From assembly GCA_963627355.1 (NCBI GenBank), contig CAVGBY010000001.1, forward strand, positions 16,469-68,062: a DNA stretch of 51,594 nt, read 5' to 3'. Below, piece after piece: positions 40,905-51,594 of this stretch (position 1 is the stretch's first letter; the number at the start of each line of letters is the position of its first letter). Both the position numbers and the translations under genes were made by a program. The stretch is from an uncultured Prevotella sp. (GTDB lineage Bacteria > Spirochaetota > Spirochaetia > Treponematales > Treponemataceae). The notes beneath the pieces are model-generated. The model had not been told where the DNA came from. It searched no databases and saw only the letters and a program-made list of their open reading frames with translations.

Positions 40905-41684
40905 ATGATTGACGTACAGAATGAAGAGGACACGCGCGAGGTGCCTTTGCAGAAAGTCGGGGTTAAGGGCGTAAAGTATCCGGTTACGGTTTTGGATAAA
41001 AATAACAGGACGCAGAGTACCACGGCCGTTGTTGATTTGTTTGTGAATCTTCCGCATCATTTTAAGGGAACGCACATGAGCCGCTTTATCGAGATTTTTC
41101 ACAAGCACCACGAAAATCTTACAATGAAACATTTTCTTGAGATGCTCGAGGAAATCCGCACCCATCTGAACGCTCAAAAATCCTATGGCGAAATGACATT
41201 CCCGTTTTTTATGGAAAAAAAAGCGCCGGTCAGCGGTCAGGCGGCAATCATGAGCTACACCTGCAAATACGAGGGAGCTGTTTCAGAAAATGAACGTCAG
41301 TTTTTTGTCTCAATCCAAGTTCCTGTAACAACCGTTTGTCCATGCTCAAAGGCAATCAGCGAATACGGCGCGCACAACCAGCGTGGACTAGTTGTTGTAA
41401 AACTGCTTTATTCAGACTTTTTCTGGATTGAAGACATTATCCAGATGGTGGAAAATTGCGCCTCAAACGGATTGTATTCACTTTTAAAGCGCAAGGACGA
41501 AAAATACGTTACCGAGCACGCCTACGAAAATCCGCGGTTTGTGGAGGATGTGGTGCGCGAAGTTTATCTTGGCCTGCGGAATTTTAATATTGAAAAGCCG
41601 TTCAGATGGTTCAGCGTGGAATGTACCAACGCCGAAAGCATCCACAACCACGACGCATACGCCTACACAGAATATCAGGAGTAG
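40905..41684 (+). CDS. folE2: GTP cyclohydrolase I type 2 (FolE2)
   Basis: DVQ...QKVGV, KGTHMSRF, TTVCPCSK, GAHNQR, LKRKDEKYVTE.AYENPRFVED, ESIHNHDA. Confidence 0.95.
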   Translation: MIDVQNEEDTREVPLQKVGVKGVKYPVTVLDKNNRTQSTTAVVDLFVNLPHHFKGTHMSRFIEIFHKHHENLTMKHFLEMLEEIRTHLNAQKSYGEMTFPFFMEKKAPVSGQAAIMSYTCKYEGAVSENERQFFVSIQVPVTTVCPCSKAISEYGAHNQRGLVVVKLLYSDFFWIEDIIQMVENCASNGLYSLLKRKDEKYVTEHAYENPRFVEDVVREVYLGLRNFNIEKPFRWFSVECTNAESIHNHDAYAYTEYQE

Positions 41685-41702
41685 ATTAATTTTTCTTTTG
41701 TC

Positions 41703-41783
41703 GGGGAAAGTCTTCCCCTCGGCACAAACCTGCGGTTTTCGCCTACCCCTTCTAACGGGCTCAAACGCCGCCCGTAACGCCCG
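41703..41783. repeat. Palindromic interspersed element, intergenic copy (homologue of the polA insert)
   Basis: Reverse complement GGGCGTTACGGG..CCCGTTAGAAGGGGTAGGCGAAAA..TTGTGCCGAGGGGAAGACTTTCCCC aligns with 49703-49807. Confidence 0.8.
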
Positions 41784-42650
41784 CTATTTTTCGGCCGCTT
41801 CCAGAGTGTTCTGCATAAGCATTGCTATTGTCATTGGACCGACTCCGCCTGGAACTGGAGTTATGTAACCTGCGGTTTCCTTTAAATCTTCAAAATCGCA
41901 GTCGCCAATTAGCCTGAAACCGGATTTTTTTGTTGCGTCAGGAATTCTGTTTACACCTACATCAATAACGACCGCGCCCGGTTTTATCATATCTTTTGTT
42001 AAGGTGTGCGGTTTTCCGGCGGCGGCAATAATAATGTCAGCCTGCCTTGTTATTTCCGCCATATTTTTTGTTCCTGTGTGGCAGATTGTCACAGTGCAGT
42101 TCGTTTCTTTTCTTGCAAGAAGAAGGGCAACCGGTTTTCCTACAATATTTGAACGCCCGATTACAACGGCGCGCTTTCCGCTTGTTTCTATATTCATTTT
42201 TTGCAGTAAGACAAGGATTCCATGCGGAGTGCATGGCAAGAAACTTTTTTTTCCAATCACAAGGTTTCCAACGTTCACCGGATGGAAGCCATCGACATCT
42301 TTTTCCGGACTGATAGCAAGAATTACTTTTTCTTCATTAATATGTTTTGGAAGCGGCAGCTGGACCAGAATTCCGTGTACAGATTTGTCGTTGTTCAATT
42401 CGCTGATTATTTTTAGAAGCTCTTCTTCCGTTGTTGATTCAGGAAGGTGCAGGCTTCTGTCAGACATTCCGACTTCTGCAAGTGCCTTTTGTTTTCCTGT
42501 CACGTAAGAAACGCTGGCCGGATTTTCGCCTACAAGAATTACAGCAAGGCATGGAGTTATTCCATTTTTTTTCAGTTCCGCAACTTTTTCTGCAACTTCT
42601 TTTCGTACCTGCGCGGCAATTTCTTTTCCGTCAATAATTTTTGCGCTCAT
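41784..42650 (-). CDS. folD: Methylenetetrahydrofolate dehydrogenase/cyclohydrolase
   Basis: [45 protein letters not shown]. Confidence 0.97.
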
Positions 42651-42680
42651 TTGTTACCTTCCGTGTTTTTTTGTGTTTTA

Positions 42681-42709
42681 TTGTAAAAAGTCTATAAAAA
42701 TTGTATACT
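42681..42709 (+). promoter_or_regulatory. Sigma70 promoter of the OMP-lipoprotein pair
   Basis: TTGTAA-17-TATACT. Confidence 0.55.
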
Positions 42710-42743
42710 TTTTGCCTATATTTGTATAGAAATGCGAGGAAAA

Positions 42744-43406
42744 ATGAAACGTATTCTTTCCCTTTTTGGCATATTGCTGTTGTTTTCTGTGCCGATTTTT
42801 GCCCAGGCGGATGCCGGTGATTCAGATTCCGGGCAGACAGACCAAATCCAGAATGAACAGCCCGAAGAAAATGCCACTGATGAAAATCAAGATGAAGAAG
42901 ATATGGTCCGCTTTGAACGTTACGCAAGAAATGGACGCGGAGACCAGTTCCTTAAAATTGGTGTTATGGGGAATTTTCCGCTGAACTTTGGCGACCAGCT
43001 TACAATTGGCGGTTCAGCGCAGCTTGGTTACTACCGCTTTTTGAACGGATGGCTTGCGCTTGGCGGCGAGCTTATGGCCGGCTACAATCCTACAATCGGG
43101 AGCAACGTCTTTACATTTGTGCCGATTACCTTTGGGGCTATGTTCCAGCCTTGCGCGGGGCGTTTTGAATTTCCTGTTACTCTTTCTGTTGGCGCGGCGT
43201 TTGAAACTTGCGCGAACAAAAAATATTTCCCGGGTTTTTCGGCAAAGGCGGAAACAGGGGCGTTTTTTAGAATTACAGATGGATGGTCTGTCGGCTTGAA
43301 TGCCGAATTCCTTTATTTGCCGGAATGGTATACTTCAACAAAAGATGCGGATTCAGATTATGGAATTTTTATGGAAGCTGGTGTTTCTGCCCGCTATCAC
43401 TTTTAG
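42744..43406 (+). CDS. Small outer-membrane beta-barrel (TP0733/OmpW-like)
   Basis: Signal peptide, acidic linker, amphipathic strands, C-terminal AGVSARYHF. Confidence 0.75.
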   Translation: MKRILSLFGILLLFSVPIFAQADAGDSDSGQTDQIQNEQPEENATDENQDEEDMVRFERYARNGRGDQFLKIGVMGNFPLNFGDQLTIGGSAQLGYYRFLNGWLALGGELMAGYNPTIGSNVFTFVPITFGAMFQPCAGRFEFPVTLSVGAAFETCANKKYFPGFSAKAETGAFFRITDGWSVGLNAEFLYLPEWYTSTKDADSDYGIFMEAGVSARYHF

Positions 43407-43410
43407 AGTC

Positions 43411-43419
43411 GGGGGGGGG
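43411..43419 (+). repeat. Poly-G (G9) homopolymer
   Basis: GTC-GGGGGGGGG-CGGAAG-ATG; longest G run I noticed in the window. Confidence 0.9.
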
Positions 43420-43425
43420 CGGAAG

Positions 43426-44874
43426 ATGAAGAAGATTATTCTTGTTGCTGTTACTTTTGCTGTTTCTCTTTTTGGTTTTACCGGCTGCTACGATGCGATT
43501 TATCAGAGCATCCGGAATGAGATAGAGCTTACAACCCAGAAAATGCCTGGTTTTATAAACAATATTGCTCGGTTCAATGCCGGTGAAGACGCTGGGGAGC
43601 AGCAGTTTCTTTTTTTGACGAACGGGGTTATTCAATATAAAAATGCAAAAGATGAAGAGCATGGAAAGTGGACTGCACTTTCTGGAAACGGATTGCCGGA
43701 TTCTGTTCATTATGTTTTTGAAAAAACTGAGTTTGAAGGCGTTTATTTTTCAAAGATAATTGCCGACAAGGACTATGTTTATGCATTGGGTTTTGAGCCG
43801 GACTACGATACCGACAATAGCCGGAACGTTCCTGTAAATTTAAAAGTCTATTACACAAAGCCGACGCTTGCGGATGGAAAGTTGGAGATGACTTGGAAAG
43901 AGATAACAGAGCTTTCTAAGAAAATGAATGAATACCAGAAGGAAATTGACAAAACAGACGATGACAACTACGGAATGGCAATCAGCTGCCATCTTTTTGG
44001 AACAAATTCTGTAAACCCTGAACACCGCGTTGCGTTCCTGCGTGTTGGCGGCGGAAGCCCATATATTGGAAATACTAGAAATGAAACTTCTTCGCTTTAT
44101 AAATTGTCTGGAGAAACAGCTGAAGAGGTTGCGTCAATAACGTCTGGAGAAGGTAGTAATGCCGATTTGGGCGACTTTATTTATTCAGAATTTGATCTGG
44201 ATACGCTTTCTGTGGTTTATTTTGGCGGAAAGTACCATTTTATGAATTATCTGAACTCTGAGACAAATGAAGGAACAACAGGTTCTGATGGAATTGTCCG
44301 CACTGAACCAACTTACGTTTACTTTGGAGATTACGGAGGTAATCTGTATTATTTTTCAGTTGATTCTTATAATGCGGCAACTGATGAATACAAAAAAATG
44401 TTCAAATATCCAAGGGCAGATTACCGTCTGACAGATGAAAAAAAGAAAACTGTGACCGAGCCAACTGCGTTGTTGTCAGAAAAAGGAGAAAATGCCGGAT
44501 ATTTAAAAGTTGTTTCTGACAAAAATGTAATCTGCATTGCCGTTACTTCTGACAGCCTGATTCTTGGAACTGGCTCAAACCGTTCTTATAATACAAGCGC
44601 TTCGCGCGGAAGCGGTGCTGTACAGATAAAAATAGATTCTGAGGCAGGTAAACCGACAGGAACTGGTTCGTTCTCCACAAATGCAGATAAAGTAATGTAT
44701 TCACCATATACAGTAAGGGCATTGCTTGCGGTAGATCCTTCAAAAAAGGAAACAGAAACAAGCATCTACAGCACGATGGATTACATATACACTGCCACAT
44801 CCGCTGGAACAAATTCCACAAACCGCGGCTTGTGGGCGTATTATCCTGCAAAAGGCGAATGGAACCGCGAATAG
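43426..44874 (+). CDS. Lipoprotein, unknown function
   Basis: MKKIILVAVTFAVSLFGFTGC lipoprotein signal; beta-rich body. Confidence 0.8.
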   Translation: MKKIILVAVTFAVSLFGFTGCYDAIYQSIRNEIELTTQKMPGFINNIARFNAGEDAGEQQFLFLTNGVIQYKNAKDEEHGKWTALSGNGLPDSVHYVFEKTEFEGVYFSKIIADKDYVYALGFEPDYDTDNSRNVPVNLKVYYTKPTLADGKLEMTWKEITELSKKMNEYQKEIDKTDDDNYGMAISCHLFGTNSVNPEHRVAFLRVGGGSPYIGNTRNETSSLYKLSGETAEEVASITSGEGSNADLGDFIYSEFDLDTLSVVYFGGKYHFMNYLNSETNEGTTGSDGIVRTEPTYVYFGDYGGNLYYFSVDSYNAATDEYKKMFKYPRADYRLTDEKKKTVTEPTALLSEKGENAGYLKVVSDKNVICIAVTSDSLILGTGSNRSYNTSASRGSGAVQIKIDSEAGKPTGTGSFSTNADKVMYSPYTVRALLAVDPSKKETETSIYSTMDYIYTATSAGTNSTNRGLWAYYPAKGEWNRE

Positions 44875-44883
44875 TTCTGAGCC

Positions 44884-46219
44884 TTAAAAGATATTGAACA
44901 AAAGTCCTGCGTTTGCAGAAACAGAAATATTTTTTGTTTTTGCCTGGCAGGACATTTTTATTTCTGCGGAAAGTTTTTCAAATTCGCTGTTCAGAATGTA
45001 GGAAGTTGCGCCTGCGGAAATGCTCCCTGAATATTTTTTTGCCCTGAAAGAAATTTTTTGTGTGTACCGCAGTTTTAGTTTTTGGTTTTCCGGAGTTACC
45101 GCAAAAGAAAATGTTTCTGAAGGTGTAAGAAAACCGTAATAATAATGGCAGAAACTTCCTGAAATTTTTTCCGCGCGGTCAGTTCCTTGCGCCGAAACGT
45201 TAAGTTTTGCAAAACTCTTTTTTGTGTAAAAATTTATTTGCGCGGCAAGTTTTTTTTCTATTTTTACTGTTTCATCGCTCTGGATTTTTTGCTGCAGAAT
45301 GTACATTGTTCCAAATTGGGTTTTTAATTTGTTCGGAAGTGGAAAAAACGTTACCGTTGGATTTATTTTTATCTGGCATAAAGTCTTTTGCCGTGCCGAT
45401 GCTGCCGTAAAAAGTTCTTTTTCGGAAACGCAGAAAAATGCAAAATTCAGCATAAAATCTTTTAACTTCAGCTGGTTTTCTGTTGAAAAAGTTGCCTGCG
45501 GAAAATCAAAAACTGTTTTGCGGTAAAAAAGATTTGCGCTTTCCTTTGTCTTAAAGTATGGACTTATAAACCAGGCCTTAAAATTCGTCGCAAACAATTC
45601 TCTTTCGGGAAAAAGTTTTGTCGTGCTGAACCATTTTGTAGTTGTGTTTGATTTTATAAATTGACCGGAAGTGGATGAAAATGAAAAATGGGATTTCTTT
45701 CCTGCTCTAAACTGGATGAGCGCGGATTCAAGAAAATCATTTTTTTCATTTGAGTATAAAGTTATGTTTAGTTTTTTAAGGATTGAATTTGACTCAAATT
45801 TTACGGAAGTTCCAAGTCCTATCGGCTTTTCGCAGTTTGAGGCGGCTGGAAGCGGAACGTATAGGGCGGTTGTGTCTAAAAAACTGTTCTGAACCGCATT
45901 TGTTAAGGCTGAAAGCGCAGGATTTTTTAGTTTGGAAATTGCTCCGGATGGCGTAACAGTTCCAAAAACCGCTGAAAAAGGAATCCCGCTGCGTTCAGTT
46001 TTATAAAAATCTGAAAAATCAGCCTTTAGCGCCCATGCAGGCGAATAAAAATCTGGAGTTTCTGAAAATTCAGTTCGAGGAATTTTCCATGCGGTCTTAA
46101 ATTTCAGCGCGGAAAGTGAATATTTTGCGGCAACAGAAGAAACGGAATATTTTCTCGGCAGAAATTCCGTGCGCAAAAACCGATAAAATAAAGGTTAAAA
46201 ACAAAGTGCATTTTTTCAT
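44884..46219 (-). pseudogene. Putative outer-membrane protein gene with a frameshift after the signal peptide
   Basis: ATG 46219 encodes MKKCTLFLTFILSVFAHGISA-EK, then stops out of frame; deleting one A of the run at 46153-46150 joins it to the 430-aa ORF ending in Phe. Confidence 0.55.
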
Positions 46220-46248
46220 ACATAGTTAACGCAGAAAAAATGCACTTT
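46203..46248 (-). terminator. Perfect 15-bp inverted repeat downstream of the SPOR gene
   Basis: AAAGTGCATTTTTTC-16 nt-GAAAAAATGCACTTT, followed by GTTTTT on the minus strand. Confidence 0.6.
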
Positions 46249-46280
46249 CTGAAGTAAATCACAATTTTTTTTGCAAAAAA

Positions 46281-47162
46281 TTATTTTGCAACCGTTGTGC
46301 TTGTTATGTAGCTTGAAGTGTTCTGGAACGAATCAATTTTTGAAATCTTTGTCCGCCAGTATTCCGCCTCGCTTTTTGTTGTATAGGGACCGACACGGAC
46401 GCGGTAAAAAAGCTGCTTTTTATTGTCTGTGTAGGTAAAAACATCAGCAGAAATCTGGTTTTCATCAAGTCTGCTGCGCGCCTCATCCGCGGATTTGCGG
46501 CTTGTCAACGCTGTAACTTGAATCCAATACTGGACAATTTCCGGTTCTTTTGGGGCTGGCTTTGCAGTTGCAGCCATTTTTTGTTCAGTTTTTACAGCCT
46601 TTACTGTGTTTTTTTGCTCAACTTTTGCAGTTATTTTTGGCTTTACAGATTTTTCAGGCGCTGGTGTTTTTTCGGCAATCTTTGACACCGCAGGTTTTGC
46701 GCTTTCTGCGGTCTTCGGAACTGAAGATTCTGTAAGGTCGATTGTTGTTGATGAATCTTTTGCCGCCTTTTCCGGCAAGGTTTCTGAAGTTTTTGTTGAA
46801 ACAACCGCGTTTTCACCTAGCTTATTAAGTTCAGTGTTTTCTGAGTAGACATTTGCTTTTTCTGTATAAATATTCACTTCGTCAGCGCGGAATTCTGTTT
46901 TTGGGGAATTCTGGTTTTCATCCTGAATAAAGTCTGGGGTTTCTTTTTCAGTCTGTTCGATTGGATTTGAATTTTGAGCCGGTGCTGAAGGCGCTAGCGA
47001 AATCCATCCGTTGGATGCTGTGCCGTTATTTATTCTTCTTGAATTGGCGATTGTTGTTGCCGGTCTTGTCTGCGGTGTGTAAAGTATAAGCGCTGCCCCC
47101 AAGACAACAAGCAAAAATACACCGACAGCTGCAACAATCCATAATGTCCTTTTCTGTTCCAT
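46281..47162 (-). CDS. Membrane-anchored SPOR domain protein (FtsN/DedD-like)
   Basis: N-terminal TM, long P/T/E/K linker, YWIQVTAL...FYRVRVGPY..K.EA. Confidence 0.88.
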   Translation of the reverse strand: MEQKRTLWIVAAVGVFLLVVLGAALILYTPQTRPATTIANSRRINNGTASNGWISLAPSAPAQNSNPIEQTEKETPDFIQDENQNSPKTEFRADEVNIYTEKANVYSENTELNKLGENAVVSTKTSETLPEKAAKDSSTTIDLTESSVPKTAESAKPAVSKIAEKTPAPEKSVKPKITAKVEQKNTVKAVKTEQKMAATAKPAPKEPEIVQYWIQVTALTSRKSADEARSRLDENQISADVFTYTDNKKQLFYRVRVGPYTTKSEAEYWRTKISKIDSFQNTSSYITSTTVAK

Positions 47163-47199
47163 ATCGCATTCCTTTGCGGTCTGTCCCGCCCTTACTTTA

Positions 47200-47226
47200 C
47201 TATCGGAGAATGAAACAAAAACTTAA
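47200..47226 (-). promoter_or_regulatory. Sigma28-type promoter
   Basis: TTAA-N15-TCCGATAG. Confidence 0.55.
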
Positions 47227-47261
47227 TGAATTTTTTTCGTTTAATACAGAGTTTTGTGGTT

Positions 47262-47810
47262 TTAGTTGTTATCCACTATTTCAAGTGGGATACCGGTGTT
47301 TTTGTATTCTGAAAAAAGATTTTTTTGAGTCCAGAATCGGCTGAGGATTTGGCGGAGCGACATTCTGTCGCGTTTTATGGCCCGGCTTAGGCGTACAAAA
47401 AAGTTTGCCTTTACAAAGATGATTTTGTCGCACATTTTTAAAAGTTCAGGTGTCTTGTAAAGAACCGTAGCGTTAAGGACAATATTCCGGCCGCTGTTTT
47501 CTTTTATTATTTTTTTAGTTTCTTCTATTATGATAGGATAAACTATTGATTCCTGTTTTTTTAAAAGTTCAGGATGAGGAAAAATAAGTTTTCCCAGGTT
47601 GCGTCTGTTTAAAGTTCCGTCAGGGTTTTTAAGCGTAATGTTTTCTGTGGCGGCTTGTTTTTCAAACTCTTTTAGAATCTGCGGAGATGCCTTTTTTATT
47701 GCGCTGTGGACCTGCTTATCCGCGTCCAGACAGAGCCAGCCTTTTTTTTCATATTGAGAGGTGATGAAATTTTTTCCGGCGGCCATTTGCCCTGTTATGC
47801 AGATTATCAA
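47262..47810 (-). CDS. coaE: Dephospho-CoA kinase
   Basis: ITGQMAAGK, LDAD, LNRRNLGKLIF, IVYP; overlaps the polA stop. Confidence 0.9.
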   Translation of the reverse strand: MIICITGQMAAGKNFITSQYEKKGWLCLDADKQVHSAIKKASPQILKEFEKQAATENITLKNPDGTLNRRNLGKLIFPHPELLKKQESIVYPIIIEETKKIIKENSGRNIVLNATVLYKTPELLKMCDKIIFVKANFFVRLSRAIKRDRMSLRQILSRFWTQKNLFSEYKNTGIPLEIVDNN

Positions 47811-50719
47811 TGGAATTCTCCCCAGTTTTTACCGTACTCAATGCTTACTCTTAGCGGAACTTTTAATTTTACGGCGTTTTCCATTTTGTCTTTTACAAGA
47901 GAAATTGTCTCTTCGATTGTTTTTGGCTCATCTGGACATTCAAGAATCAGCTCATCGTGGACTTGAAGAAGAAGTTTTGCTCCGTTGTCTATTTCTTTTA
48001 GAGCGGAATTAACTCCAATCATCGCTTTTTTTACAATATCAGCGGCGGAACCTTGAACCGGCGTGTTGATTGCCATTCGTTCCGCGCCTGCTTTTTCAAC
48101 TTTGTTCTTGCTGTTGATATTTATAATCGGGCGGCGGCGGCCAAGGATTGTTTCAACATAACCGTTTGTTTCCGCATTTAGGATTGTCTGCGTCTTAAAA
48201 TTTGTGATTCCTGCGTAATGCTGGTCGTAGTTTGAAATAAACTGAGAGGCCTGCGTCCTGGAAATTCCCAGATCGTTTGCGAGCCGGAAAGCGCTCATTC
48301 CGTAGATAACGCCGAAATTTATGGTTTTTGCGGTGCGGCGCATTTCTGGAGTAACTTCTTCCGGTTTTACACCAAAAATAAGGGCGGCAGTTGATTTGTG
48401 GACATCAGTTCCGTCAATAAAAGCCTGGCACATATTCTTGTCTTCTGAAAGGTGGGCAAGCACAACCAGCTCTATCTGCGCATAGTCGGCGGAAATAAGG
48501 ACTTTGCCTTTAGGCGCGGTGAATGAGCTTCTGATTTTTCTGCCGGCTTCGTTTCTTACAGGAATATTCTGAAGGTTCGGCTCGCGGCAGGAAAGGCGTC
48601 CGGTCGCAGTGCCGGTCTGTACAAAATCCGTGTGGATTCTGCCGTTTTTGTCTGTCATTGTGGGTAGCGTTTCCACATAGGTTGACTGGAGTTTTGAAAG
48701 CTCGCGGAATTCCAGAATCATTTTTGGAACGGAATCGTAATGAGCAAGTTCCTCCAGCACAGATGTATCTGTTGAGTAGCCGGTTTTTGTCTTTTTTTCC
48801 GGCTTTAGTTTTCGCTCCTCAAAAAGAACTGTCTGGAGCTGTTTTGGCGATGCGATGTTGAACTGATGGCCGACTTCTTTGTAAATTTCGTTTTCGGTAT
48901 TTTCTATTCCGGCTGTAAGTTCCGCATTGTATTTGTTAAGAGAGCCGCTGTCCAGATGGATTCCTGTAAGCTCCATGTTTGCAAGAATCGGAAGAAGCCG
49001 CATTTCCAGTTCAAAAAGTTTCTGGCGGCGTTCATCCTTGAAACGCTCAGAAAGAAAATTCCACAGCTGAAGCGTAAAATCCGCGTCTTCTGCCGCATAA
49101 GGAACAGCCTGCTCAAGCGGAACATCTGCAAAAGTCTGACCTTTTTTTACAATGTCGGAAAATTCAATTCCTTTTAGGTTCAAAAATGTCTCAGAAAGGC
49201 ATTCAAGGCTGTAGGAATTTTTTCCGTTCCGGTCCGGACTTAAAAGCCACGCTGCAATCATTGTGTCGGCAAGGTTACATTTGTATTCGATTTCGTTGTT
49301 ATTAAAAAATCCGTTTGAAGCCAGCGCTTTTAGGTCGAATTTTCCATTGTGCATGACAACTTTTAAGTCCGGCTCGTTAAAAATGCGTTTTAGTTCCTCG
49401 AATGCTGCTTTTTTTTCTATTTTGTCTGAGTCAAAAAGCGACTGTTCTTGCTGCGCTAAAGGAACGTAGACCGCGCTGCCTTTTTTGTAGCAAAGGCTGA
49501 AACCTTGAATTTTGCAGCTGATTGTGTCAAGGCTGTCTGTCTCGCAGTCAAAAGCGACTGTTTTTGCGGAATTTTCTGCGCCAAGCACTGCGTTGATAAA
49601 TTCTTTTAGTTCAGAAATATTTTGGATTGCGTTGTAGTTGCCCTTGTTCTGCACAGGAGGTTCTGTGGAAGGCTGAAAATCAAAGAAGTCTGCAAGATGC
49701 ACGGGGCGTTGCGGGGTGTCCCCGCTAGAGGGGGTAGGCGAAAATTTGTCAGTTTCGCCTTGCGGAACGTGCAAAGTTGAGCCGAGGGGGAGAACTTGTT
49801 CTTCCCCATCAGATGATGCTGTCTCTCCGGCTTCGAGCGCCAGTTCTGAGTATTGTTTTGCGTCCTGAAATGCGCCGTATTGCTCTAGAAGTTTTGCCGC
49901 GGCTGAAAAGTTGTACTGATTTTTTTGAGCGAGCGCGGAATCGATTTTTTCGCAGGGAACGGTCTCGCAAAGTTTTATAAGTTTTTGTGAAAAATATGCG
50001 TTTTCTTTTCCGTCTGCAAGTTTTTTTTGCATTGCCCCTTTGATTTTTTCAATATTCTGGTAAATTCCGTCCAGATTTTGATATTCGGAAAGAAGTTTTG
50101 ACGCGGTTTTTACGCCGACGCCGGTTACGCCGGGAACATTGTCCGCTGTGTCGCCGTACAACGAAAGCAGGTCCAGAAGCTGCTCAGGTTTTACGCCCCA
50201 TTCTGCCTGAACTGCCGCTGAGTCTGTCACTTTCCACGTTGCGGCCGCGTCCGGTTTTAGAATCTGGATATTTTCGCATACAAGCTGCATTAAATCTTTG
50301 TCGCCGGAAAGGATTCTGCAGGTTCTTCCTGTTTCCGAGCATTTTTTTGCTACGGTTGCGATTATGTCGTCTGCCTCGTAGCCGTCGCACTGAAGGGTAG
50401 GAATTCCGAGTTTTTCCAGAATTTCGCAGATCCATGGAATCTGGGCGTGCAGGTCTTCCGGGGTTTTGTTACGGGTGGCTTTGTATTCCGGGTAGAATTC
50501 GTGGCGGAATGTTTTTGTCTTTGAGTCCATTGCCGCAAAAATGTAGGCTGGCTTGTAATGTCTTATGATTGAATAAAGGTTTCTGAAAAAGCCGAAAAGC
50601 GCGCTTATATTTTCGCCTTTTGAATTTGTAAGCGGCCGGTTGATAAAAGCAAAATAACATCTGAAAATCAGACCGTAGGAATCAATGATATAAACTGTGT
50701 TTTCGTCAAAATTAGCCAT
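47807..50719 (-). CDS. polA: DNA polymerase I
   Basis: 5'-3' exo (YKATR, YEADD, SGDKD), 3'-5' exo (DCET, HNGKFD, YAAEDAD), polymerase (TGRLS, NLQNIP, DYAQIEL, KTINFGVIYG, QVHDEL). Confidence 0.98.
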   Translation of the reverse strand: MANFDENTVYIIDSYGLIFRCYFAFINRPLTNSKGENISALFGFFRNLYSIIRHYKPAYIFAAMDSKTKTFRHEFYPEYKATRNKTPEDLHAQIPWICEILEKLGIPTLQCDGYEADDIIATVAKKCSETGRTCRILSGDKDLMQLVCENIQILKPDAAATWKVTDSAAVQAEWGVKPEQLLDLLSLYGDTADNVPGVTGVGVKTASKLLSEYQNLDGIYQNIEKIKGAMQKKLADGKENAYFSQKLIKLCETVPCEKIDSALAQKNQYNFSAAAKLLEQYGAFQDAKQYSELALEAGETASSDGEEQVLPLGSTLHVPQGETDKFSPTPSSGDTPQRPVHLADFFDFQPSTEPPVQNKGNYNAIQNISELKEFINAVLGAENSAKTVAFDCETDSLDTISCKIQGFSLCYKKGSAVYVPLAQQEQSLFDSDKIEKKAAFEELKRIFNEPDLKVVMHNGKFDLKALASNGFFNNNEIEYKCNLADTMIAAWLLSPDRNGKNSYSLECLSETFLNLKGIEFSDIVKKGQTFADVPLEQAVPYAAEDADFTLQLWNFLSERFKDERRQKLFELEMRLLPILANMELTGIHLDSGSLNKYNAELTAGIENTENEIYKEVGHQFNIASPKQLQTVLFEERKLKPEKKTKTGYSTDTSVLEELAHYDSVPKMILEFRELSKLQSTYVETLPTMTDKNGRIHTDFVQTGTATGRLSCREPNLQNIPVRNEAGRKIRSSFTAPKGKVLISADYAQIELVVLAHLSEDKNMCQAFIDGTDVHKSTAALIFGVKPEEVTPEMRRTAKTINFGVIYGMSAFRLANDLGISRTQASQFISNYDQHYAGITNFKTQTILNAETNGYVETILGRRRPIININSKNKVEKAGAERMAINTPVQGSAADIVKKAMIGVNSALKEIDNGAKLLLQVHDELILECPDEPKTIEETISLVKDKMENAVKLKVPLRVSIEYGKNWGEFH
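49703..49807. repeat. Palindromic element inserted in frame in polA (105 nt, 35 codons)
   Basis: Hairpins GCGGGG-TGT-CCCCGC, AGGCGAAA/TTTCGCCT, GGGGGAGAAC/GTTCTTCCCC; homologous to 41703-41783. Confidence 0.8.
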
Positions 50720-50777
50720 ATGCACAGTCTACAGTATTTTTATTAAAAATTCATTAAAATAAGTTGATAGGAAAATT

Positions 50778-51521
50778 ATGGAAGATATGTTTTTTGAGCC
50801 GCTTGCGCGTGTTCTGATTAATCATGGGTTTTGCTCGCTGCGGAGCGCCCGTAATTTTTTGCGGAAGAACAACGTTTTTGTGAACGGCATACGCATTTTT
50901 GAATGTGGTTTTTCTGTTAGGATTGAAAAGGATGAGATTTCTGTGAACGGAAGTGTCCTTGAAAGACAGAAGAATCTTTACATTTTGCTGAATAAGCCTG
51001 CCGGTTATGTATGTTCGTCTGTGAGCGACAGGCATCCGGTTGTTTATGAGCTGGTTTCTTCCATTAATATTCCAAAAAATCTGGGAAAACTGCACACGGT
51101 GGGGCGGCTTGACTGCGACACTTGCGGACTTTTGCTTTTTACGACGAACGGAAGTTTTTCGCATAGGCTGGCGGCTCCGGATTTTAAGGTTGAAAAAAAA
51201 TATTTTGCGCGGCTGGAAAATCCTGTGGAAAAATCCGGGCAGGAGGCGTACAAAAAGATGTTTGCGGAGGGGGTTGTTCTGCCTGCGGAAAAGAAATCCG
51301 GGGAACAGAAGGCTCTGCCCGCCGCATTGGAATTTTTGAGCGTGCGGGAATGTGTGGTTACTGTGAGCGAGGGGCGGTTCCACCAGATAAAAAGGATGTT
51401 CCTGTCTGTAGGAAACAGTGTTGAGTTTTTAAAGCGGATTCAGTTTGGAAACATAAAACTTGCAGAGGACCTTTTGCCGGGGCAGTTCCGCTTTTTGGAT
51501 GAAGAGGATTTTTTTTGCTGA
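50778..51521 (+). CDS. RsuA-family pseudouridine synthase
   Basis: S4-like N-terminus, LNKPAGYV, VGRLDCDTCGLLLFT, EGRFHQIKRM. Confidence 0.92.
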   Translation: MEDMFFEPLARVLINHGFCSLRSARNFLRKNNVFVNGIRIFECGFSVRIEKDEISVNGSVLERQKNLYILLNKPAGYVCSSVSDRHPVVYELVSSINIPKNLGKLHTVGRLDCDTCGLLLFTTNGSFSHRLAAPDFKVEKKYFARLENPVEKSGQEAYKKMFAEGVVLPAEKKSGEQKALPAALEFLSVRECVVTVSEGRFHQIKRMFLSVGNSVEFLKRIQFGNIKLAEDLLPGQFRFLDEEDFFC

Positions 51522-51536
51522 ACGTTTTTATGCAAG

Positions 51537-51594
51537 AGGGATTGTAGGGGAAAGCCGCAGGCTTTTTGCGAGCGGAGCGAGCAATGAAACCCCG
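51537..51594. repeat. Start of another GC-rich structured element, truncated by the window end
   Basis: GATTGTAGGGGAAAG, AAAGCC-GCA-GGCTTT, GC-GGA-GC. Confidence 0.55.

Follow-up and report, generated by a model that had tools for sequence, protein, structure and literature searches.

Repetitive extragenic palindromes (REPs) tagged with the tetranucleotide GTAG are sometimes found inside genes, where they lie in frame and give 20–30 amino acids to the protein (Di Nocera, De Gregorio and Rocco 2013; PMC3733652). DNA polymerase I is among the targets named there (R. palustris, residues 338–367, a CGTC-type dimer); the same study suggests that linkers tolerate intragenic REPs and leaves open whether there is a reason for the retention of palindromes inside genes or whether they are simply junk that is tolerated. 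In-frame REPs inside genes have also been noted for subclass 2.4 of the systems formed by REPs and REP-associated tyrosine transposases (RAYTs; PMC6006769, PMC8266576), and Rickettsia palindromic elements (RPEs; Ogata and Claverie, reviewed in PMC2229807) are described as long stem-loops with 12-bp terminal inverted repeats. Here we report on a dispersed family of three-hairpin repeats, one copy of which lies in frame in polA, the DNA polymerase I gene of an uncultured bacterium deposited as Prevotella sp. and placed by GTDB in the Treponemataceae (GCA_963627355.1). The window analysed is a stretch of 51,594 nt (contig CAVGBY010000001.1, positions 16,469 to 68,062), to which all coordinates refer; labels beginning with G, C and L are our own for genomes, contigs and loci. 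The comparisons point to an element that is preserved as folded DNA.

The gene polA occupies 47807..50719 on the minus strand and encodes 970 amino acids counted from ATG, with the Pfam domains 5_3_exonuc_N, 5_3_exonuc, DNA_pol_A_exo1 and DNA_pol_A. The repeat copy at 49703..49807 (minus strand), supported by the family profile, AlphaFold and fourfold-degenerate sites, corresponds to PolA residues 305–339 and is situated between the 5′–3′ exonuclease SAM fold (to residue 259) and the 3′–5′ exonuclease (from residue 363). Sequence and Pfam thus agree with the initial annotation, which had reported 105 nt in the PolA frame coding for 35 residues between the exonuclease domains. It had also placed both ends on codon boundaries; the insert is indeed in frame, but its ends are fuzzy by a base or two and the boundary is a convention. 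Hairpin 1 (49786..49807, minus strand) is a lengthened variant that codes for GEEQVLP and is identical in all five species compared. The hairpin 2 region (49737..49783, minus strand) is the variable part, with eight of the nine amino-acid columns (of 35 in the element) that vary across these species, and at its foot the sequence shows a GTAG tag on the strand opposite to the mRNA (49734..49737, plus strand). Hairpin 3 and a conserved single-stranded tail (49703..49725, minus strand) code for SGDTPQRP. The element is richer in GC than polA as a whole (60% vs 45%), and DNA folding of 49695–49815 scored z = –3.5 and –3.3 against shuffles, one value per strand; its ends are complementary over 4 nt only, without a longer terminal repeat. 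In an AlphaFold model of PolA (76 sequences, mean predicted local distance difference test (pLDDT) score 89.5), the sole stretch below 50 comprised residues 303–337, matching the element and consistent with the disordered loop that had been predicted at the insert. Rfam gave no match at E ≤ 1 over 41000–51594, and ARAGORN found no tRNA gene in the window.

A second copy in the window (41703..41783, plus strand) lies between the convergent genes folE2 (40905–41684, plus strand) and folD (41784–42650, minus strand), and kinship between the two copies had been proposed from their alignment. Their direct pairwise match is weak (35/47 nt, with E = 0.001 for a search of the window and 0.037 for one of the genome), but a family profile seeded with the intergenic copy and iterated over the genome with the polA region masked scored the polA copy at E = 3.4e-8, while the reversed genome returned no place at all, so the kinship holds. 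The same masked profile found 72 places in the genome at E ≤ 1, of which 68 had E < 0.05. The folE2–folD copy occupies the same site in three relatives (G017, G020, G080), is truncated in a fourth (G077) and is absent from a fifth (G078). In relatives this gap holds additional small hairpin repeats, either stacked on the element or substituting part of it (L290–L292).

An unexpected and strong signal came from silent sites. Across the five species, none of the 17 fourfold-degenerate columns in the polA element varied, compared with 189 of 335 elsewhere in the gene (nominal p = 1e-6), and windows of 17 such sites without a change occurred only on the element. Three other genes of this genome carry a mid-gene copy, namely the PyrK–PyrD fusion (in its linker), NudC and a heptaprenyl-synthase-like membrane protein; fourfold sites varied at 2/15 inside vs 194/259 outside the insert in the first, at 4/24 vs 35/84 in the second and at 2/16 vs 45/71 in the third. 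Pooled over the four genes, 8 of 72 sites varied in the inserts and 463 of 749 outside. Copies at orthologous sites, coding or not, were 91% identical (27 pairs), against 60–70% for polA fourfold sites and 75% for random paralogues; the nearest paralogue of the polA copy in its own genome reached 72%. The repeat is inherited vertically at fixed sites, with place and orientation kept in 27 of 30 syntenic comparisons (13 of 16 sites). Stem changes were counted in 16 ungapped pairs, drawn from the 27 orthologous pairs plus the folE2–folD site. The stems covary: intergenic stems showed six pair-keeping double changes among 235 pairs (0.4 expected) and eight single changes. Among unpaired positions of orthologous copies, 26 of 290 differed in linkers and tails and 25 of 152 in loops. 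Because silent sites, stem pairing and unpaired linkers and tails are kept while the peptide varies, these sequence comparisons argue that the preserved entity is the folded DNA and not the peptide.

All 68 copies are built alike: hairpin 1 and a short spacer are followed by hairpin 2, whose length varies, then by a conserved CTACCC, hairpin 3 and a tail. The repeat unit thus consists of three hairpins over 70–130 nt, with all tags pointing the same way. A perfect hairpin-1 stem of 4–8 bp was present in 64 of the 68 copies, in 37 stem-loop variants. GTAG stood at the foot of hairpin 2 in 55/68 copies, and at hairpin 1 it was exact in 23/64 and degenerate in most others. Among the 49 copies with a short hairpin 2, 33 had a C-GNA-G triloop at its apex on the GTAG strand (GAA 21, GGA 6, GCA 5, GTA 1) and none on the other strand, with a mean of 0.4 in shuffles; the copies are related, so these are not 33 independent events. 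Triloops of the GNA type with a C:G closing pair are reported to be very stable in DNA (PMC3201870), and since the apex loops are strand-specific and of this DNA-stable kind, we infer that folded single-stranded DNA is the working form of the repeat. Between co-directional genes, the GTAG strand is in the mRNA for 29 of 38 copies. At the very end of the contig, 51540–51594 holds a different GC-rich hairpin repeat that is part-similar to the family; these 55 nt recur letter for letter where another contig (C100) begins.

In all four mid-gene copies of this genome the strand opposite to GTAG is read, in one shared frame. Five of the six frames are often open in the 58 other copies assessed (41, 48, 32, 28, 26 and 1). 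Of eleven copies flagged as internal to open reading frames (ORFs), seven were discarded because the frame was either N-terminal read-through or short and spurious (C29, C24, C40, two on C85, two on C68), and two further long-frame matches, on C21 and C68, lie outside the mid-gene inspection. Outgroups lack the insert in PyrK–PyrD (G057, G081), NudC (G057) and the heptaprenyl-synthase-like gene (G078, G079). The repeat was considered as the cause of the PyrK–PyrD fusion and ruled out, as the fusion is general in the genus without it. The copy in the heptaprenyl-synthase-like gene (C75 of this genome, G000) contains an extra hairpin insert absent from relatives, and the same gene has a scaffold gap of ten N (L032:1796–1805), after which the frame diverges from its orthologues.

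A search for further in-frame copies had been proposed and was productive beyond these three additional genes. A profile of the encoded peptide matched 64 of 101 genomes of the genus; the following figures refer to the 150 best matches, beyond which there were 260 more. Fifty-five of the 150 lay in open frames of at least 300 aa, and about 49 were truly internal by hand count. Pfam domains were recognised in 44 of 46 proteins with internal copies that were scanned, and the hosts comprise at least 17 families, including GltB (two sites), MetH, UvrD, AsnB, MiaB-like proteins, ABC exporters and ABC-F, with insertion mostly at domain junctions. Control profiles built from other frames placed far fewer of 150 listed matches in frames of at least 300 aa (2 and 5 in 101 genomes, 9 and 1 in 61 genomes), and inspection left 0, 2, 6 and 0 internal to recognisable genes (two judged by position alone). 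Antisense insertions therefore exist but are rarer than those in the host frame. A frame-blind DNA scan of metagenomes yielded at least 121 stretches with 117 distinct copies. The flank was sufficient for 61 of these, and long frames enclosed 12. Ten of the ten copies supported by Pfam or an evident orthologue were in the host frame, in six of six host genes, with four frames about equally open; one metagenome copy sits in a FeoB-like gene, again in the host frame. The residues GSTAPEQD make up 75% of the host-frame peptide and 45–63% in other frames; the most linker-like peptide is that of the host frame. A profile search over 1.84 billion representatives returned only 17 matches at E ≤ 0.001, too few to serve as a census, and at least two of them have the look of a different type of translated repeat array. 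In IorA of one relative (L207, G118) the in-frame insert seems partly duplicated in tandem. A second, unlike repeat-like insert coding for PSTGSGT occurs in frame in the same PyrK–PyrD linker in another species (L045, G069) and adjoins the element in a MetH linker (L273, G043).

The history of the polA insertion is not that of a recent, clean event. The insert is common to five species at 91–93% PolA identity. Close relatives had been expected to show a gap of about 35 aa here; instead, the two sister lineages have interdomain linkers of 66 and 107 aa and the next outgroup has one of 64 aa, compared with 80 aa in our species, and across PolA sequences the linker is hypervariable at 28–107 aa (one partial record excluded). 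The 66-aa linker retains EEQV...QRP, i.e., both ends of the element, and this remnant reads best as decay of the element. Loss by internal deletion is also evident outside genes: an intergenic site in this genome holds just the joined ends of a copy that is intact in G020. The repeat occupies this linker in 12 of 108 distinct PolA sequences, all of one clade, and the peptide-profile search of the genus added three more, for a total of 15 carriers. In an 854-column PolA tree computed without the linker, these 15 require seven gains, or one gain and nine losses; all our trees are FastTree trees, in which several nodes are weak. The repeat lies in opposite orientations at the same position in DUF763 and in both orientations within one MetH linker, and hairpin-3 subtypes alternate between orthologues. 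Because of these orientations and alternating subtypes, we read the sequences as evidence that some sites were hit more than once, inversion in place being the alternative. In a different lineage, another hairpin-rich in-frame insert, of which 26 aa or more align and which may reach about 40 aa, was seen in a loop of the PolA 3′–5′ exonuclease, opposite residue 479 of our protein (L128, L131, L136).

Beyond the genus the repeat is sparse. In a phylum-wide draw, 7 of 201 genomes matched, five from this genus and two from a distant family. The best copies outside the genus (L277 in G281, L278 in G123) lie directly upstream of the type I restriction gene hsdM, preceded in L277 by a reverse-transcriptase gene, a context that suggests transfer of the repeat together with a defence cassette. 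One metagenome contig with an in-frame copy carries a neighbouring gene whose cluster members are named Fibrobacter, so that the family appears to occur in frame in a Fibrobacter-like host as well. A search of plasmids gave only fragments at E of about 9, and viral scans gave no match and one unrelated match.

The explanation that we consider probable is a non-autonomous REP-type repeat that is tolerated in linkers and constrained as folded DNA or RNA. A unit of roughly 70–130 nt, made up of hairpin 1, hairpin 2 with GTAG at its foot, hairpin 3 and a short tail, would spread slowly: its GTAG strand would fold as single-stranded DNA and be mobilised by an HUH/Y1 (RAYT-like) enzyme presumably encoded outside this assembly. 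Most insertions into genes would be purged; those that fall into an inter-domain linker, in the frame coding for Gly, Ser, Thr, Ala and Pro, would be tolerated as disordered loops. In polA the insertion would predate the divergence of at least five species. The stems, tag and tail of this copy would since have been constrained at the DNA level, most likely by selection on folded DNA or RNA and possibly aided by template-directed stem repair, while the hairpin 2 loop and the peptide drift. Some lineages would lose the copy by deletion, leaving stubs as new linker residues. A more ambitious version holds that the repeat has ceased to be a mere parasite: every copy, including those in essential genes such as polA, would be selected by the host as a folded DNA or mRNA signal, giving coding copies a second code, and one reading frame would act as a ready-made linker cassette that time and again enters, is exchanged in and leaves the same linkers in Treponema-like spirochetes and Fibrobacter-like gut bacteria; we regard this as conceivable and somewhat doubtful.

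The initial annotation had favoured a selfish palindromic repeat that is creating new protein sequence. The dispersed family, the in-frame position in a surface linker and the many coding copies bear this out in part; a recent clean insertion does not fit an insert shared by five species, and a purely selfish, decaying element fails to account for the silent-site conservation. In its strict form this proposal corresponds to the picture drawn for RPEs, in which a recent, neutral selfish insertion has not yet had time to decay and similar copies elsewhere go back to recent insertions of their own, at a hot spot that permits them. Seven gains without any loss in the PolA tree, the alternating hairpin-3 subtypes, the opposite orientations in DUF763 and MetH and the presence of unrelated repeats in the same kind of linker would all suit it. 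Nevertheless, we consider it unlikely: the odd hairpin 1 is letter-identical in five species whose silent sites differ by 30–35% pairwise, the closest paralogue in the genome is only 72% identical, most syntenic comparisons (27/30) keep place and orientation, and at least one ‘empty’ site is a deletion stub. For the polA copy a recent insertion is thus contradicted; repeated gain may have taken place in distant lineages. Conservation could also be mutational in origin, with template switching in stems or gene conversion overwriting changes at no benefit to the host. Template switching has been proposed for coding palindromes (PMC6649704), and a cause of this kind would suit the coupled arm changes that we observed as well as the swaps of whole modules between orthologous copies; in hairpin 1 of the PyrK–PyrD copy, one coupled change joins a non-synonymous substitution with a silent one. 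Stem repair does not predict, however, that unpaired linkers and tails are kept too, at a lower rate of change than loops, and site-specific peculiarities persist across species although the genome contains no close donor. Since unpaired positions are kept and a close donor copy is lacking, selection is our preferred reading of the conservation, and a purely mutational cause seems improbable.

Strong structure together with silent-site conservation would also suit a skipping of the hairpins at the RNA or ribosome level, by bypassing or excision, so that the peptide is never made; bypassed palindromic elements do occur in a yeast mitochondrion (PMC6649704). Skipped sequence would escape the constraints seen here, where the frame is open, insertions and deletions are in frame and the linker-like frame is favoured, and we give this idea very little credence. 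That the insert might be an assembly artefact or a chance likeness could be suspected from the fragmented assembly (219 contigs) and the weak pairwise match, but four other species have the insert too, as do all 15 listed members of a 31-member 90% cluster, which come from several collections, and the profile score with its empty reversed control speaks against chance. The independent assemblies refute an artefact, and the probability left to this explanation is negligible.

Several observations weigh against the favoured account of a mobile REP-type repeat under constraint, most of them touching its mobilisation. Neither a Y1 transposase (PF01797) nor DUF559 was found in this 95%-complete genome. 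Y1 genes occur in 32 of 101 genomes of the genus, whose assemblies are incomplete; at none of 30 such loci was the gene flanked by the repeat (flanks of about 1.5 kb), and one of the 30 had a copy 1.2 kb away. No Y1 gene lay near the at least 121 metagenome copies, and Y1 genes and repeats did not co-occur: a Y1 gene was present in 5 of the 23 genomes rich in copies and in 27 of the remaining 78 (p = 0.31). The polA flanks showed no target-site duplication. Three filled/empty DNA pairs comprised a deletion stub, a pair lacking a clear duplication and a pair that failed to align. An apex triloop is missing from the polA copy, and the frame rule is not absolute, since two antisense frames account for eight internal copies. 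Relatedness among copies and among species means that the p-values overstate, and a gappy alignment would likewise lead to low pLDDT at the insert. In the genus, Y1 proteins about 250 aa long (L243–L254) are flanked by short GGGGAC-type inverted repeats, as in TIRYT elements. One hairpin-3 subtype fits a short TIRYT-type consensus, a weak lead. Mobilisation by a RAYT-like enzyme is thus inferred from likeness to the systems described in PMC6006769 and PMC8266576.

The family offers a test bed for whether palindromes in bacterial genes are junk or are kept: orthologous housekeeping genes carry coding copies by the dozen, alleles occur in filled, decayed and empty form, one site shows both orientations, and the silent-site signal is strong. 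It also reveals a route by which inter-domain linkers can gain and lose 25–35 residues. A search of the open-access literature gave no description of the family in Treponema or Fibrobacter. Palindromes that lie in frame, including one in a PolA, are already known from the work cited at the outset.

Compared with these systems, the analogy to RPEs drawn in the initial annotation holds for the length of about 105 nt, the in-frame presence in conserved housekeeping genes as well as between genes, and the apparent tolerance (PMC2229807). By their description in that review, RPEs are set apart by structure, as our element consists of three local hairpins with a terminal repeat of at most 4 bp; in addition, RPEs are said to lose their repeat identity over time (PMC6649704), whereas the present element keeps its silent sites. 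The coding palindromes of nematomorph mitochondria resemble it in that hairpins are maintained in coding sequence with coupled arm changes, yet they are described as long perfect repeats derived from the gene's own sequence (PMC6649704) and not as a dispersed family. Miniature inverted-repeat transposable elements differ by terminal inverted repeats and target-site duplication, neither of which was seen in our family. The REP/RAYT (TnpA-REP) and TIRYT systems (PMC6006769, PMC8266576) are closer, in that the strand-specific GTAG, the mismatched stems and the DNA-type loops would fit a folded single-stranded DNA substrate; a cognate enzyme was not located here, and the Y1 proteins of the genus are flanked by a different, TIRYT-kind short inverted repeat. 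The closest parallel, ahead of RPEs, is the intragenic GTAG-tagged REP, which is known from DNA polymerase I (PMC3733652). As in GTAG REPs, the tag abuts a short stem-loop (55/68 copies), copies number in the tens and are mostly intergenic (68, four of them mid-gene), and the stems, which in GTAG REPs have 5–13 bp with loops of 2–20 nt and here are 4–8 bp long in hairpin 1, show complementary changes among copies. REP units measure 20–40 bp and mostly form head-to-head dimers, whereas ours span 70–130 nt with tags in the same direction, and only single modules are REP-sized; the association with RAYT/Y1 genes was not found either. On account of the unit size, and because no transposase link was found, we do not assign the family to REP/RAYT, although by analogy the element appears to work like an intragenic GTAG-type REP. 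The description in PMC3733652 lists no GTAG family in Spirochaetes and does not name Treponema, though one of the families listed there may match the present one in sequence. Nor does that account report a reading-frame preference or silent-site conservation for REPs, both of which are seen in the family described here.

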